DNA of 64,000 bases from an uncultured Candidatus Saccharibacteria bacterium. Lineage in GTDB: Bacteria; Patescibacteriota; Kazan-3B-28. The stretch spans positions 54,011 through 118,010 of the forward strand of contig CAYSVM010000001.1 of the NCBI GenBank assembly GCA_964434605.1. The letters are read 5' to 3'. Shown one piece after another: positions 1-4,788 of the stretch. The notes below the pieces were generated by a model. That model ran no database searches, was not told the origin of the DNA, and saw nothing but the letters and a program-made list of their open reading frames with translations. Position 1 is the stretch's first letter. Each line of letters opens with the position of its first letter. Made by a program: the position numbers and the translations under genes.

Positions 1-102
1 GATTACGGCGATTGCGCCGTACAAGAACCATCTATGCTTCAGGAAACTAAGCGGAATTTTGATGGAAACATGGCTGGGAAGAGATTTGTTTTTCATAAGA
101 CG

Positions 103-1176
103 CTAATTAATTTCCTTGGCTAATTGGCGAATAACATCCTCAAGGGTTTTAACGTTGACCTTCCCCCAAGACCATTTGGCTAGTTTTGCATAGATGTTAG
201 CATCACGACGAGGTAATAGCTCCACTCCGGAGATAGACTTTTTAACAACTCCTTCCAAAGCATCAGCCACTGGAGCATCGGCCCAGAACTGTGGCCCTCC
301 ACCTTCAAAATCTGGGTCAATATGCAACATAATGGTTGCCTTATGGCGAGGCTGGGTGCCGATATAAATATTGAGATACTTCGATGTTCTCTTGGCGGTT
401 ACCCCCAATTCACCAAAGTCACCCCTAAGAATTGAGTTAAACAGCTGAAGATATTCCTGGATCTTGGCAGAACGACCAAAGGCAGACAGAAAATCTTCGT
501 CCGCAGGAATATCTAATGGTTTGGACTTGGCAGTTACATCCTTCTTGGTGGCAGCCCCAAATAACTTAGGTATGACAATTTCAGTGCTGTCATGTTTGTA
601 ATATTCTAGTTCAACAGCATAGATATCGAACTTGCTGTTCTGATTGAGGTAGACAATTAGATCTTTCAGACGATCTTCCAGTGAGTCCATCAAGACAACA
701 AACTTGTAATTACTATCATCCAAGTGGGTGCGGACAGTATCCCAGAGCTGTTGAGCTTCAGCTTCACTTAGGCCCAACTCTTGTTGCATCCGCTCGAACA
801 GCCCGGTTTGAAAGTGGGCACGGGTAGTTTGTTCTATCGTGGCGGTAAATTGCTCCCAATCGGTGTCGTGTTTCCAAAGCGATGCTCCATAGTCCAGAAC
901 CTGGGCAATAACTCTACGCTTATCGGCATTGCGATAGAGCTTGGTTTCGATCAGATAAATATCACCGTCGGTATCGATGGCAATAGCATCAATGGGGCCG
1001 CTACTAGTCATATATTCACGGACTAGGATCAACGGCCGAACATTCTCTTTGATATCGTAAAGCGGAACCACTTCGGGGTTCTCGTAGATGTATTTCTGCA
1101 AAGAATCTTCAAGATCGAATTTGGACTGTTCGACCTTGTGAGCCTTTTTGCCTGGTTGGGTAATAATGATGGCCAT
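103..1176 (-). CDS. PD-(D/E)XK nuclease-fold protein (NucS/RecB-like nuclease domain at N-terminus, uncharacterised C-terminal domain)
   Basis: 357-aa ORF. The motif 'VREYMTSSGPIDAIAIDTDGDIYLIETKL...VIAQVLDY' matches the RE..G.ID..A.D..G...IE.K...V.QL..Y signature of NucS-like and restriction-endonuclease-like nucleases. The C-terminal 170 aa are unassigned. Confidence 0.45.
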   Translation of the reverse strand: MAIIITQPGKKAHKVEQSKFDLEDSLQKYIYENPEVVPLYDIKENVRPLILVREYMTSSGPIDAIAIDTDGDIYLIETKLYRNADKRRVIAQVLDYGASLWKHDTDWEQFTATIEQTTRAHFQTGLFERMQQELGLSEAEAQQLWDTVRTHLDDSNYKFVVLMDSLEDRLKDLIVYLNQNSKFDIYAVELEYYKHDSTEIVIPKLFGAATKKDVTAKSKPLDIPADEDFLSAFGRSAKIQEYLQLFNSILRGDFGELGVTAKRTSKYLNIYIGTQPRHKATIMLHIDPDFEGGGPQFWADAPVADALEGVVKKSISGVELLPRRDANIYAKLAKWSWGKVNVKTLEDVIRQLAKEIN

Positions 1177-1249
1177 AGCTTCGAGTTATACTACCAGCTG
1201 TGGCCTGCCGACCTTTTGATGAATTATTCAAAAAGGGGCAGACCTCACG

Positions 1250-1480
1250 CTTAGTCAACCCGAAACCTCTGGCCCGAAGGCTGAGCATTACGGTAAGCAG
1301 AGCATCTGCCCGTCTTTGACCGCAATGCGGTTTGACGAGAATACTGCTTCTGCTTCGGGCCTACTAAAAATACAAACTTTAAAGGTTTCGGGTTGACGAG
1401 GCCATCATAACATAAAACCGCCCTCTGGGAAGGGGTTTTCCGCTTCTAGACCCAACTAACGCACTTGGGTCGCTTTGCTC
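1250..1480. ncRNA. Candidate structured RNA of unknown class in a 520-bp non-coding gap
   Basis: Perfect 14-bp inverted repeat gtcaacccgaaacc (1254-1267) with ggtttcgggttgac (1384-1397) encloses a 9-bp inverted repeat ggcccgaag (1271-1279) with cttcgggcc (1353-1361). Further local hairpins at gcag..ctgc 1297-1309, ccgc..gcgg 1320-1330 and gacccaa..ttgggtc about 1454-1476. The gap is GC-richer than the surrounding DNA and has no ORF. Confidence 0.3.
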
Positions 1481-1696
1481 GCGCACTGGTTGGCTCAACA
1501 GCTCGGTCTGGATTGGTGCCCCAAGGAGATAATTAGGACCTTTCGAGACGGCATTGGGGTATCTAGGTCAATTATAGAGCCTTAAAGAGAAAATAGACAA
1601 ATGAGATAGTGGCAAGGGGTCTGTCTTGCTATGGATTTTAAGCAGGCTTTGTGACGTAATAACTGACTAACTTAAAAAATTAAAGACAATCCCTTA

Positions 1697-2419
1697 TCAG
1701 AATATAACCGGGGTCATAGGATCCCGCCGAATAGTTGATTTACTAGCTGTGCTTGATTTGGTGTCAAAGAGACGCAAGATTTCTATTTGAGTTTTCAATC
1801 CGGGAATCCAACTAGCAGGTAGAGACCCATCTTCGATGTACTTACTCAGATTGTGAATCAGTCTAGTAAAATCTCTCTTTGGATTCCTGCTAATCGATCC
1901 ACGCACGAGTCTTAGTGATAATGCAATGTCACTTTGCTGCTGAGCGGTATAGGATTTACCCAAAATCTTCATCTGGGATTGAGTGGGACCTCCGATACCC
2001 TTTTCGATTGCCGACCTAACCTCAGATTCTGAAAGTCCATTCTCTTTTGCAAAATCTTTGATAGCCTTCTTGGTAAACTCGGAGTCAAGAGTCGCGCCTG
2101 TCCACCATGGCTCTTCATAAATTTTTCTACACAGACCTTCTGTTGTAGCGGTTACATCGTCCTCGATTACTCCTTTGGGACAGTTAGCTTTACTTGGTGG
2201 TAAACATTTGCCAGTAGAGTCTTCACAGTAAAGTGTTCCCGAATAGAATTCAGGACTATAGCAATTACCATATTTGTCGCAATCCTCCGGAAACATTTTC
2301 TGAACTGAGGATCCATAAACTAAAACTGAGCTAGGGTCTTCAACACAACTGATGATTTTCCCTTGAGCTCCATCTTCAACAACTGGGAAAAACCCAATCG
2401 GGCAGATTTGATTAGACAA
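1697..2419 (-). CDS. Hypothetical protein with a Cys-rich N-terminal half (about 10 Cys in 90 aa)
   Basis: 240-aa ORF with no recognisable catalytic motif. It lies in an AT-richer block with three other unknown ORFs on the same strand. Confidence 0.5.
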   Translation of the reverse strand: MSNQICPIGFFPVVEDGAQGKIISCVEDPSSVLVYGSSVQKMFPEDCDKYGNCYSPEFYSGTLYCEDSTGKCLPPSKANCPKGVIEDDVTATTEGLCRKIYEEPWWTGATLDSEFTKKAIKDFAKENGLSESEVRSAIEKGIGGPTQSQMKILGKSYTAQQQSDIALSLRLVRGSISRNPKRDFTRLIHNLSKYIEDGSLPASWIPGLKTQIEILRLFDTKSSTASKSTIRRDPMTPVIF

Positions 2420-2454
2420 CTGACTCTAAAGGTTATTGTCAGTAGGTTTTTTCT

Positions 2455-2796
2455 TTAATAATTCAGACAACTGCTCGCACCTTTATAGCGATTCTCATAA
2501 TCTTGTTTTAATTTTTCCTGACATGCTTGGCGGGAAATCGATGCACCCCAGCAGGGGTGACTAGTATCGTTCTTAGCATTGATATAGGCGTTAAACATCC
2601 AGTAGTCTCTTCCTGATTGCAGAGTACCAAAATCCCCTCTAGCCAACATTGCTTCATCAATCGCCTTTTGAACTTTGGGGTCATCATAAGACTTCCCTCT
2701 AATAGACGAGTTAGGGCCCATTTTGAGGTGTTGGTACATCTGGAACCTGGCCGATTGAGCCCTATAGGCATCATGGGCACGATCATAAAAATCCAC
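2455..2796 (-). CDS. Hypothetical protein
   Basis: 113-aa ORF co-directional with neighbours. A 92-aa ORF in another frame overlaps it, so the frame call is uncertain. Confidence 0.4.
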   Translation of the reverse strand: MDFYDRAHDAYRAQSARFQMYQHLKMGPNSSIRGKSYDDPKVQKAIDEAMLARGDFGTLQSGRDYWMFNAYINAKNDTSHPCWGASISRQACQEKLKQDYENRYKGASSCLNY

Positions 2797-2803
2797 GCCT
2801 CTA

Positions 2804-4099
2804 TTATTGATGAAACCAGCGCCAGATTTGCTCTTTCATTTCGTCTCGTTCTGCACGGGTAATATCTCCTTGGCGGTATTTTTTATCAGCATCTTTTAAA
2901 CCCGCAAAATATTTATCGAGCCTAGTCCGTTGAGGGCGAGAAGAAGATTGGGCGTTAAACTTATCTATGTTACCCGCCGTAACCTTTTTCCAGCCCCGCT
3001 TTTGCGCCTCCTCTTCAGTAACACAATTAGCAACCTGAGTTGGTTTGTCGTTACCTTCTTTCCAGACGAAACCTTTCTGTTTGCCCCTTACTGTTTTTGC
3101 AATCTTCTCCGCCTCTTTTGTGGTTACACGGTGAGACGGCAGTTTTTGCATCTCCGCTTCAGCCATTGACCATTGGCTGGCGTTCTCTCTAATGGCTTTA
3201 TCAAATTCTCGAATCTTTTCCCCAGCGAGTTCTTTCTTTTCGTCTATAATTCCGACACCTTTTTCTTTTAATAAATCTACCGAGAACATATCAATGGCAT
3301 CTGCGTCTACATATTTGTTTATGATTGCATCTGCCTCACCCCAAGTCATAGATTTAGTGGAAAATTTGTTATTTTCCCTCTTTTCGGCAATCCCGAGTTT
3401 TTTTAATAAACCTCCCCAGGACCTATCAGGTATAAGCACCGCACCCTCAATCCTAGTTCTAGAATTATCCATAGACCGAAAACTTTTCATCTCTTCAATT
3501 AGCGAGGAAAGATTAAAATTCAATTTGTCCAGTCTTTCGTTGTGCTGCTTTAATACGTTGCTATCGGTTGTCCTGGAGATTATTTTTTCAATTTCATTTA
3601 TTGCTTTAATGTTAGAAGAAATACGTGATTTGAAATTGTTAATCCGTAAATCCCCTCTCAGCAAAAAAGTAAAAGCATCGTTTAAAGAATCTCTTTGGCT
3701 TCTCAAATCTTCCCCCATAGTCGTGATTTTATCCACAACCTTCTGAACTTCGGTGTTGTGAGTTTTTACAGCTTCGGTTTCTTGTGCCTTTAAAGCGTAA
3801 AGGTTACCAACACTGCTTTCTTCTGGACATAGTCCTTTACCGTCTATCGAAATAGGTAGGTTATTGTAAAAACCAAGATTGGTCTCATCTCCAACAATCT
3901 TGTAATCGCGACCCCCGGTGAGAGCCCGGTATTGAGCATCCGTCAGCTGATCGGGCCCATAATACTTTGTTCCCCAAGCGAACACAGGCAAAGGGATATT
4001 AAACAAAAAGATAACCAAAAAAAGACTAACCCAAAAACAACTTTTTTGTTTATTTGAAAAATTACTCAGTAACGATGACCTGTTCATAGGTACCTTCAC
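2804..4099 (-). CDS. Hypothetical membrane-anchored or secreted protein with coiled-coil regions
   Basis: 431 aa with an N-terminal hydrophobic segment 'CFWVSLFLVIFLFNIPLPVFAWG' followed by a long charged helical region. No enzymatic motif seen. Confidence 0.55.
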   Translation of the reverse strand: MKVPMNRSSLLSNFSNKQKSCFWVSLFLVIFLFNIPLPVFAWGTKYYGPDQLTDAQYRALTGGRDYKIVGDETNLGFYNNLPISIDGKGLCPEESSVGNLYALKAQETEAVKTHNTEVQKVVDKITTMGEDLRSQRDSLNDAFTFLLRGDLRINNFKSRISSNIKAINEIEKIISRTTDSNVLKQHNERLDKLNFNLSSLIEEMKSFRSMDNSRTRIEGAVLIPDRSWGGLLKKLGIAEKRENNKFSTKSMTWGEADAIINKYVDADAIDMFSVDLLKEKGVGIIDEKKELAGEKIREFDKAIRENASQWSMAEAEMQKLPSHRVTTKEAEKIAKTVRGKQKGFVWKEGNDKPTQVANCVTEEEAQKRGWKKVTAGNIDKFNAQSSSRPQRTRLDKYFAGLKDADKKYRQGDITRAERDEMKEQIWRWFHQ

Positions 4100-4343
4100 T
4101 TTCTCTCAGAATAAGAAAAAGATTCATACTAGATAGCGCCAATTCACTCATGAGCGTTTGGCTGACCATAGGCGGCAGGGACGTTGCACTAACTACCCCG
4201 ATATTATGTTCATCACGTGGTCTTTCAGTCTGGATTGAATACGCAAAAGCCAAAGAGGCGGCAAAAACGACAACAATCCCTAAAAATATATATAAAGGAT
4301 AAAATATTTTAGAACTAGAAGATGTGGTCTTGATATTTTTCAT
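4062..4343 (-). CDS. Small single-pass membrane protein (hypothetical)
   Basis: 93-aa ORF with TM segment 'IFYPLYIFLGIVVVFAASLAFAY'. It overlaps the start of the downstream ORF by 38 nt. Confidence 0.4.
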   Translation of the reverse strand: MKNIKTTSSSSKIFYPLYIFLGIVVVFAASLAFAYSIQTERPRDEHNIGVVSATSLPPMVSQTLMSELALSSMNLFLILRESEGTYEQVIVTE

Positions 4344-4711
4344 CCTACCTCAAAAAAACTACCCTAATTACACAATATATCAAAATCAGTAGAAAGTCAA
4401 GCTTGGTAGACTCTAGACCCCACCGCAGATTGGAAAATAATTATGTACCAAGACCAACTATTTTGCTATTTGGGGCAAAATTTTCTCAACCACTACAACA
4501 GAGAACCCACACTACAATTAACCAAATATCCATCACTGGCTGGGACGGTAGGACGATTTCCCGGGTGCTCCGGGGGCCCTGCGATTCAGCTGCAACAAGG
4601 AATGACACAAAACTATAGAGCAGCTGAACGGACGCACCCAAGCCTGACGGCAGGTTCAAATCCATGATACTGCGGCCAAGAAAAAATCAGGGCCAACTCC
4701 TTGCTTTTTCT

Positions 4712-4788
4712 CTTGGCTCCGGGGGTGGGATTCGAACCCACGGTCCATCGATTAACAGTCGATTGCTTTACCGCTAAGCTACCCCGGA
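4712..4788 (-). tRNA. tRNA-Asn (GTT)
   Basis: Reverse complement reads UCCGGGGUAGCUUAGCGGUAAAGCAAUCGACUGUUAAUCGAUGGACCGUGGGUUCGAAUCCCACCCCCGGAGCCA. Anticodon loop is cU-GUU-aa, T-loop is GGTTCGAATCC, and the CCA is encoded. Confidence 0.85.

Follow-up and report, generated by a model that had tools for sequence, protein, structure and literature searches.

A conserved pseudoknotted RNA, absent from Rfam, precedes a NucS-like nuclease gene in Patescibacteria

The window studied here, by which we mean the whole 64-kb stretch of DNA, carries on its minus strand a conserved structured RNA of ~170-220 nt which, judged by comparison with its relatives, is a new family absent from Rfam. Alignment of these relatives shows that its helices P2, P3 and P4 and a 14-bp pseudoknot are maintained by compensatory mutations. 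The explanation we favour, and to which we give about an even chance, is that positions 1397 to 1177 (minus strand) constitute a structured cis-acting 5' leader of the nuclease mRNA, of a new RNA family. Its transcription start, its 3' end and a switch between two folds are predicted features, and a regulatory role of the RNA is plausible.

Results

The gap upstream of the nuclease gene

The first-pass annotation had singled out the gap at 1177-1696 for its nested perfect inverted repeats, and a repeat search recovers both pairs: 14-mer arms at 1254-1267 and 1384-1397, and, nested inside them, 9-mer arms at 1271-1279 and 1353-1361. In full, the outer repeat spans 1249-1268 and 1383-1402 (20 nt, 90%) and the inner one 1271-1290 and 1342-1361. 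We estimate that perfect inverted arms of 14 bp would turn up by chance within ~200 nt in a gap of 520 nt with a probability of ~4e-4, and the 14-mer occurs only at its two sites within the 64-kb window. As described earlier, the gap is free of ORFs, with none of at least 60 aa. A conserved-looking 59-aa ORF (1109-1288, minus strand) that overlies the 3' half of the RNA was considered as a coding sequence and rejected, since a 1-nt indel destroys its frame in the relative L001 and L043 lacks an intact frame too. The GC enrichment ascribed to the gap is real and modest (gap 0.469, RNA core 0.514, window 0.439). The second hairpin set placed at 1430-1480 likewise exists, but it is a separate thing, made up of a terminator-like hairpin at 1434-1421 and a spacer hairpin at ~1471-1449. 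The RNA module takes up only ~1228-1440 of the 520 nt; positions 1500-1696 are the end of another inserted segment and lie outside the module. On the minus strand the gap adjoins, as first noted, the 5' side of a nuclease gene:

103 to 1176, minus strand: nuclease gene, 357 aa, NucS-like PD-(D/E)xK (Pfam NucS_C, E = 0.0046)

The nuclease also matches NCBIfam NucS with E = 4.9e-5, which is below the cut-off, and its residues 1-235 match the PADLOC phage-defence candidate PDC-S11 (E = 5.4e-17). It has 1653 relatives at E <= 1e-10; sequence searches against PDB and PHROGs returned nothing useful, and an exact look-up of the two window proteins that flank the gap found neither on record.

Relatives of the RNA

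Rfam 15, run at gathering thresholds over the whole window, reported seven tRNAs and nothing else, and at E <= 10 over 1050-1850 it gave chance matches only, the best of them (21 bits, E = 0.67) to the rimP leader. The earlier failure to recognise RNase P, tmRNA or SRP is thus upheld: at E <= 10 Rfam still proposes none of the three, and no tmRNA was detected by ARAGORN. Nor did Rfam 15 match the gap to other housekeeping or catalogued RNAs (6S, riboswitches, ribozymes, group I and group II introns). Phage and plasmid collections searched by blastn contained no match to the gap, and three DNA patterns sought in viral contigs gave 0, 0 and 19 chance matches, none of which fitted the covariance model.

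Relatives were reached through the nuclease protein, which led to L001; the DNA 5' of the gene in this locus is homologous to window positions 1201-1473 (nhmmer E = 2e-24). The window and L001 alone display 9 compensatory pairs and no broken pair. A covariance model (R1) then identified the RNA in loci reached by three routes: close relatives of the nuclease (L032 and L034), an exact 21-nt DNA pattern in JGI metagenomes (9 of 11 matches), and homologs of the neighbouring recombinase (L051 and L075, both diverged). Together the relatives found with covariance models comprise 12 distinct sequences, in Patescibacteria metagenome contigs of groundwater or sediment origin. A second model (R2) produced weak full-length matches exactly 5' of two nuclease homologs of a Peribacteria MAG (L002 and L003), and RNAalifold of these paralogs returned identical nesting with five compensatory pairs in P2. 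A third such copy, in L008, was recognised by eye; we refer to these three diverged RNAs as type D.

Helices and pseudoknot

The core of the RNA runs from 1397 to 1228 on the minus strand, and its leader continues to 1177. Among the 12 distinct sequences 97.8% of cells are paired and 19 of the 47 pairs show compensatory changes, much of this covariation stemming from a few deep subtype splits, so that the independent events are fewer than the cell count; controls with slid partners pair in only 35-49% of cells. The folded RNA domain suspected in the first-pass annotation is borne out by these figures. The fold itself stood as proposed; its strand (minus) and extent (~1397-1228, plus P5 to 1202) are fixed here for the first time, and the pseudoknot, the putative upstream terminator and promoter, and the mobile-island context, all absent from that annotation, were found in the follow-up. 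Frequent G-U pairs fit the minus strand only, as they would be A-C on the plus strand, and on the plus strand the covariance model scores only 12-15 bits. The predicted fold of 1177-1397 (minus strand) reaches -93 kcal/mol, with z = -7.4 relative to shuffles. The elements of the fold are:

1381 to 1397, minus strand: P2 5' strand (GUCAACCCGAAACCUUU), corresponding to an arm of the 14-bp repeat annotated earlier
1254 to 1270, minus strand: P2 3' strand (AGAGGUUUCGGGUUGAC), pairing with 1397-1381
1353 to 1361, minus strand: P3 5' strand (GGCCCGAAG), an arm of the 9-bp repeat annotated earlier
1271 to 1279, minus strand: P3 3' strand (CUUCGGGCC), pairing with 1361-1353
1286 to 1327, minus strand: hairpin P4, lower stem 1327-1319 with 1294-1286, upper part and tip 1316-1297
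1305 to 1319, minus strand: pseudoknot 5' strand (UCAAAGACGGGCAGA), pairing with 1242-1228, also seen in the repeat search
1228 to 1242, minus strand: pseudoknot 3' strand (UCUGCCCCUUUUUGA), containing a U run kept in every subtype
1202 to 1244, minus strand: hairpin P5 (GGUCUGCC...GGCAGGCC), from RNAalifold and the window fold

P2 (17 bp) has 9 pairs with compensatory changes and 98.5% of cells paired; P3 (8-9 bp) has compensatory changes in 5 of its 8 modelled pairs, with 100% of cells paired. The compensatory changes of P4 all fall in its lower 9 bp. Its upper part has none, pair 108-125 being unpaired in 3 sequences, and its apical sequence GGGCAGAUGCUC is nearly invariant. A further helix, P1 (1403-1398 with 1247-1242), which RNAalifold drew from two sequences, was rejected: it shows no compensatory change and 90.8% of cells paired, and as its 5' strand falls between the -10 box and the predicted start, it could form only if the transcript took in the -10 region.

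All 167 of the 167 cells of the 14 pseudoknot pairs are paired, and two of these pairs carry compensatory changes (12 sequences); where the window has the pair A1307/U1240, L034 has C:G. Its 7-bp core joins the nearly invariant P4 apex GGGCAGA to the equally nearly invariant and complementary 3' tail UCUGCCC; type D, in which the pseudoknot was read directly from the sequences, keeps it in other letters (GGGGCAAC:GUUGUCCC). A run of four to five U lies directly 3' of the G+C part of the pseudoknot tail in every subtype. Hairpin P5 has 16 pairs, two with compensatory changes (RNAalifold, 11 sequences), and is missing from L050 and type D. As the 5' strand of P5 is the 3' strand of the pseudoknot, the two are mutually exclusive; the pseudoknot also excludes the hairpin at the tip of P4, a tip that is itself conserved and that in type D is a GCAA-loop hairpin covarying between L002 and L008. 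Since the pseudoknot excludes both P5 and the P4 tip, the RNA is predicted to be able to switch between two folds.

Putative promoter, upstream hairpin and proposed leader

Two elements precede P2 on the same strand:

1421 to 1434, minus strand: small G+C hairpin (CCCUUCCCAGAGGG) with a U tract at 1417-1414, intrinsic-terminator-like (terminator scan)
1404 to 1412, minus strand: extended -10 element TGnTATGAT, with TG at 1412-1411 and the hexamer at 1409-1404 (promoter scan)

Every relative has this hairpin, the letters of its stem changing (CCCCUUC/GAAGGGG, CCCUU/AAGGG, CCCCU/AGGGG) while their pairing is kept, and UUUU(U)AU always comes after it; it has the build of an intrinsic terminator, a G+C-rich hairpin and then a U tract, and we regard it as a putative one. 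A -10-like hexamer (TATGAT, TATGCT, TAAGCT or TAGAAT) stands 6 nt before P2 in all subtypes. Because of this spacing we infer that transcription starts at ~1397, the first base of P2, which would make the RNA the 5' end of an mRNA. The hexamer TTCCCA was considered as a -35 box and dropped; it forms the loop and stem of a hairpin with letters that vary among relatives.

At the other end, conservation extends past P5 to the ribosome-binding region or the start codon in most members, and L042 and L048 show no difference before the ribosome-binding region and diverge only there, just before the ATG. No canonical terminator hairpin was found between the RNA and the ATG at 1176. Neither fold clearly sequesters the ribosome-binding site, and a good Shine-Dalgarno sequence is missing in several members, that of the window included.

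Genes after the RNA

A nuclease homolog follows the RNA in 11 of the 14 loci detected with the model, and also in L002, L003 and L008. In L042 and L050 the genes after the RNA are unrelated to the nuclease, and L046 derives from a nuclease deletion. Loci with the nuclease and without this RNA are L036-L039 and most of L005-L030; in L036 and L039 the nuclease, 61-63% identical, comes directly after tRNA-Asn, and most archaeal homologs have no such RNA either. The RNA is not an obligatory partner of the nuclease. The genes that follow the RNA, encoding the nuclease, DUF2939, an HhH-like protein and an Ltp-like protein, suggest no metabolite.

A known RNA, LOOT (RF03000), was detected at 68-90 bits, on the same strand, 5' of the nuclease in 10 of 30 other nuclease-family loci (Patescibacteria MAGs), with 36-64 nt between the LOOT end and the nuclease start codon. 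Two additional copies lie further upstream of the nuclease:

L004 1245-1374, same strand as the nuclease: LOOT
L011 2833-2952, same strand: LOOT
L012 2848-2965, same strand: LOOT
L013 2833-2952, same strand: LOOT
L014 13-123, same strand: LOOT
L015 2826-2950, same strand: LOOT
L016 2827-2951, same strand: LOOT
L017 2816-2944, same strand: LOOT
L022 2815-2945, same strand: LOOT
L031 2832-2953, same strand: LOOT
L009 2508-2628: LOOT, further upstream
L010 775-905: LOOT, further upstream

LOOT is an orphan motif reported by Weinberg et al. 2017 (PMC5737381), and the literature searched offered neither a function nor a stated gene link for it; Rfam classes it as 'Gene; sRNA'. It occupies the same niche as the window RNA, directly 5' of the NucS-like nuclease family (an association observed here and not part of its published definition), and in both cases the stretch from the RNA to the start codon contains a G+C segment with UUUUUG after it. 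The two differ in architecture, LOOT being ~121 nt with four successive hairpins that include GAAA-type loops, whereas the window RNA is ~170 nt with nested P2, P3 and P4 and a pseudoknot; there is no detectable sequence similarity between them. As the LOOT model does not match the window at its gathering threshold (46.4 bits) or at E <= 10 in 1050-1850, and as the architectures differ, we consider the window RNA a separate family in the LOOT niche. In several LOOT loci the bases before the ATG are complementary to the segment ahead of the GGAAAC-loop hairpin of LOOT, as in L015 (UGUGGUGGGU...ACCCACCACA-AUAUG).

Two unrelated RNA families in one place before one protein family would also accord with the RNA being a trans-acting partner of the nuclease, such as an antitoxin, inhibitor, sensor or cofactor, in a layout like that of type III toxin-antitoxin systems, with a leaky stop at the U run and with LOOT as its equivalent elsewhere. 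ToxIN and CptIN loci are ordered as promoter, pseudoknot-forming RNA, partial stop and nuclease gene, and the order found here (promoter, pseudoknotted RNA, U run, nuclease) resembles theirs, as does the defence-related context, with the nuclease matching a PADLOC defence candidate. The RNA, with 70-76% nucleotide identity beside a protein that is 64% identical, is moreover at least as conserved as the coding sequence. Yet the tandem direct RNA repeats of type III systems were not found by the repeat search in 1100-1800, and the protein has a PD-(D/E)xK fold that is not ToxN-like. In type III systems the RNA always accompanies the toxin gene, whereas here close relatives do without it, the nuclease of L036 and L039 being of the same C-terminal type and having no RNA; most archaeal homologs lack the RNA too. 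The same RNA stands before unrelated genes in L042 and L050, and the C-terminal domain type of the nuclease is not tracked by RNA subtype. On balance we think it unlikely that the RNA is such a partner.

Island context

Most loci have a tRNA-Trp or tRNA-Gln gene on the same strand as the RNA and 83-153 nt 5' of it. The usual order 3' of the RNA is the nuclease, a DUF2939 or HhH-like gene and a convergent large serine recombinase, which is found 2-3 kb downstream in 9 distinct RNA-bearing islands; beyond the recombinase are restriction-modification genes and, in L044, also phage-like genes. From this arrangement the locus looks like a tRNA-adjacent integrative island with defence-type cargo in its first slot. 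The possibility that the RNA is specific to serine-recombinase islands was rejected: L002, L003 and L008 have RNA and nuclease with no recombinase within 3 kb, and the converse is seen in L079, a related recombinase island without the RNA.

In the window the corresponding edge is marked by a short sequence:

1491 to 1497, minus strand: tRNA 3'-end-like remnant UGAGCCA (alignments with relatives)

The spacer that follows it (~1490-1441, with the hairpin at 1471-1449) is homologous to the spacers found after intact tRNA-Trp or tRNA-Gln genes in relatives, and we infer that the remnant at 1497-1491 represents the original tRNA-proximal edge of the island. A segment has been inserted between the tRNA and this remnant in the window, L042 and L050, which is why the tRNA-Asn gene of the window (4714-4788, its 3' end at 4714-4725) is 3.2 kb away. 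These three loci have a junction of ~30 nt in common (…CCAGACCGAGCUG plus 7-8 nt resembling a tRNA 3' end), situated at ~1487-1517 in the window, at 2590-2620 in L042 (oriented; 31 nt shared with the window) and upstream of the RNA in L050, and in all three the RNA module is not adjacent to a tRNA. The shared junction appears to be the terminus of a different type of insert, one with tRNA 3' ends as its target.

The window insert (~1500-4713) includes four ORFs without a family match (93, 431, 113 and 240 aa) and a second ORF-free, GC-rich gap at 4344-4713 (minus strand, 370 nt, GC 0.52-0.53) just downstream of tRNA-Asn. Within this gap a 10-nt repeat of the tRNA-Asn 3' end (CCCCCGGAGC, at 4576-4567 versus 4725-4716) suggests repeated integration at tRNA-Asn. 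A direct repeat in L036 (3820-3870 and 3916-3965), consisting of the last 11 nt of tRNA-Asn and ~40 nt downstream, sits between the tRNA and the RNA-less nuclease gene and is probably an att-site duplication. At the left edge of the window (1-102, minus strand) a gene that is cut by this edge and starts MKNKSLPSHVSIKIPLSFLKHRWFLYGAIAVI is homologous to the DUF2939-like gene after the nuclease in L032, L044 and L051; the remainder of the window island, any recombinase included, would lie beyond that edge.

The island setting bears on a further reading, in which the RNA is a stand-alone sRNA of the mobile island that ends at ~1228, at the U run, and the downstream gene is transcribed by read-through only; such an sRNA would influence host targets or the island life cycle, the convergent serine recombinase being one example of the latter. 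The convergent recombinase of the 9 distinct RNA-bearing islands would accord with this, and so would the diverged RNAs of L051 and L075, to which a recombinase-led search gave access. The core and the U run are kept where the cargo gene has been replaced (L042 and L050), and LOOT, the niche equivalent, is filed by Rfam among sRNAs. A canonical terminator hairpin before the U run was not found, however, and in most members conservation goes on past P5 as far as the start codon. The absence of a recombinase within 3 kb in L002, L003 and L008, and of the RNA beside the recombinase of L079, also speaks against it, and we hold a stand-alone sRNA to be quite improbable.

A location near the edge of an integrative island beside tRNA genes, where inverted repeats are common, could also indicate an element acting at the DNA level (a site of recombination, a palindrome bound by a protein, an integron attC-like site, a MITE or an origin for single-strand synthesis), and a folded single strand of DNA would be compatible with the pairing. 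Against this, 15 or more bp change with pairing kept and wobbles confined to one strand, neither of which double-stranded protein sites need, and for an att site neither a pseudoknot nor a constant spacing to a -10 box would have any meaning. RNA subtype is independent of recombinase and spacer as well: L032 and L034 have a spacer in common and recombinases 85% identical yet different RNA subtypes, and L001 and L043 have the same RNA and different spacers. A MITE or transposon terminal repeat would come in dispersed copies with target-site duplications; here there is one copy per locus and no other in the 64-kb window. The terminal repeat of a mobile element, which the first-pass annotation had named as the finding that would overturn its RNA, does not apply to a single-copy sequence with strand-specific G-U pairs and a conserved -10 box upstream. 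Altogether, we regard an element of this sort as very improbable.

Bridge (seek) RNAs of IS110/IS1111 elements have loops complementary to target and donor and are encoded beside a DEDD recombinase. The window RNA resembles them as a structured RNA of ~170 nt just inside a mobile-element end with a promoter at the junction. It differs in that the recombinase is of the large serine type (Resolvase, Recombinase, Zn_ribbon_recom), on the opposite strand and not DEDD, and in that its variable parts are independent of insertion site and recombinase type. A guide role of this kind was rejected on account of this independence from the insertion site; a literature search found no bridge RNAs for serine recombinases.

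Discussion

If the RNA is a cis-acting leader of the nuclease mRNA, as we favour, transcription would start at the first base of P2 from the extended -10 box, and the terminator before this box would insulate the module from upstream (tRNA) transcription. The RNA would act in cis as a two-state switch, in which a signal, be it a ligand, a protein or co-transcriptional kinetics, chooses between the pseudoknot and the local hairpins, and the outcome would set the amount of full-length nuclease mRNA that is made or translated. The most likely route would be attenuation at the U run once the pseudoknot helix forms; we know of no established precedent for a pseudoknot helix serving as a terminator stem. 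The module is usually located at the tRNA-proximal end of the island, where it would head a slot for defence-type cargo genes.

In leaders of the ZTP and SAM-II type a pseudoknot competes with the expression platform. The cis-acting leader proposed here is similar to these riboswitch or attenuator leaders in that a covarying fold of aptamer size is placed at the predicted 5' end of an mRNA and in that the 3' strand of the pseudoknot overlaps an alternative hairpin and is then followed by a U run. The general attributes of a riboswitch are likewise present, namely a conserved structured domain supported by covariation and, granted the predicted start, a location in the 5' UTR on the same strand as the gene with mutually exclusive pairing. 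It differs from these leaders in matching no Rfam riboswitch, in that the terminator, if any, would be the pseudoknot helix itself, and in that the controlled gene would be a nuclease, an unusual riboswitch target, and not a metabolic or transport gene.

A broader conjecture, which we consider doubtful, is that the window RNA and LOOT are interchangeable RNA components of one widespread nuclease defence module, in which they sense a signal or restrain the nuclease. In the sensing version an infection-linked signal would be detected by the RNA and nuclease expression would be released; in the restraining version the RNA would bind the nuclease and keep it restrained, in a single-unit counterpart of type III toxin-antitoxin systems. 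Were this conjecture true, it would provide a function for LOOT and a new RNA-controlled defence system.

The structured noncoding RNAs of candidate-phyla bacteria (Patescibacteria) are poorly charted, and the one described here is large, pseudoknotted and backed by covariation. Having LOOT and the new RNA as alternatives before one nuclease family gives a handle on the orphan LOOT, and it makes testable the question of how and why a nuclease would be placed under RNA control. A response to a ligand would make the RNA a riboswitch that acts on a defence gene, an unusual case; if it merely stabilises or attenuates the message as a leader, it would be a useful and modest addition to the RNA catalogue.

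Additional observations

On the 5' side of the recombinase a divergent DNA methyltransferase or restriction-modification system is present in every island examined, and its type varies (N6_N4_Mtase, Type ISP, HsdM, DpnII, BsoBI). The regions that hold the recombinase and the restriction-modification genes are:

L034 4071-5428
L044 4552-6825
L048 4909-6130
L051 3331-5850
L072 2718-5834
L075 336-5884
L079 4148-5874

Group I introns have been reported in tRNA genes of Patescibacteria (PMC13011429, 2026). An Andersenbacteria contig (L006) contains a group I intron (RF00028, 57 bits) at 1560-1828, ~1.2 kb upstream of its nuclease homolog.
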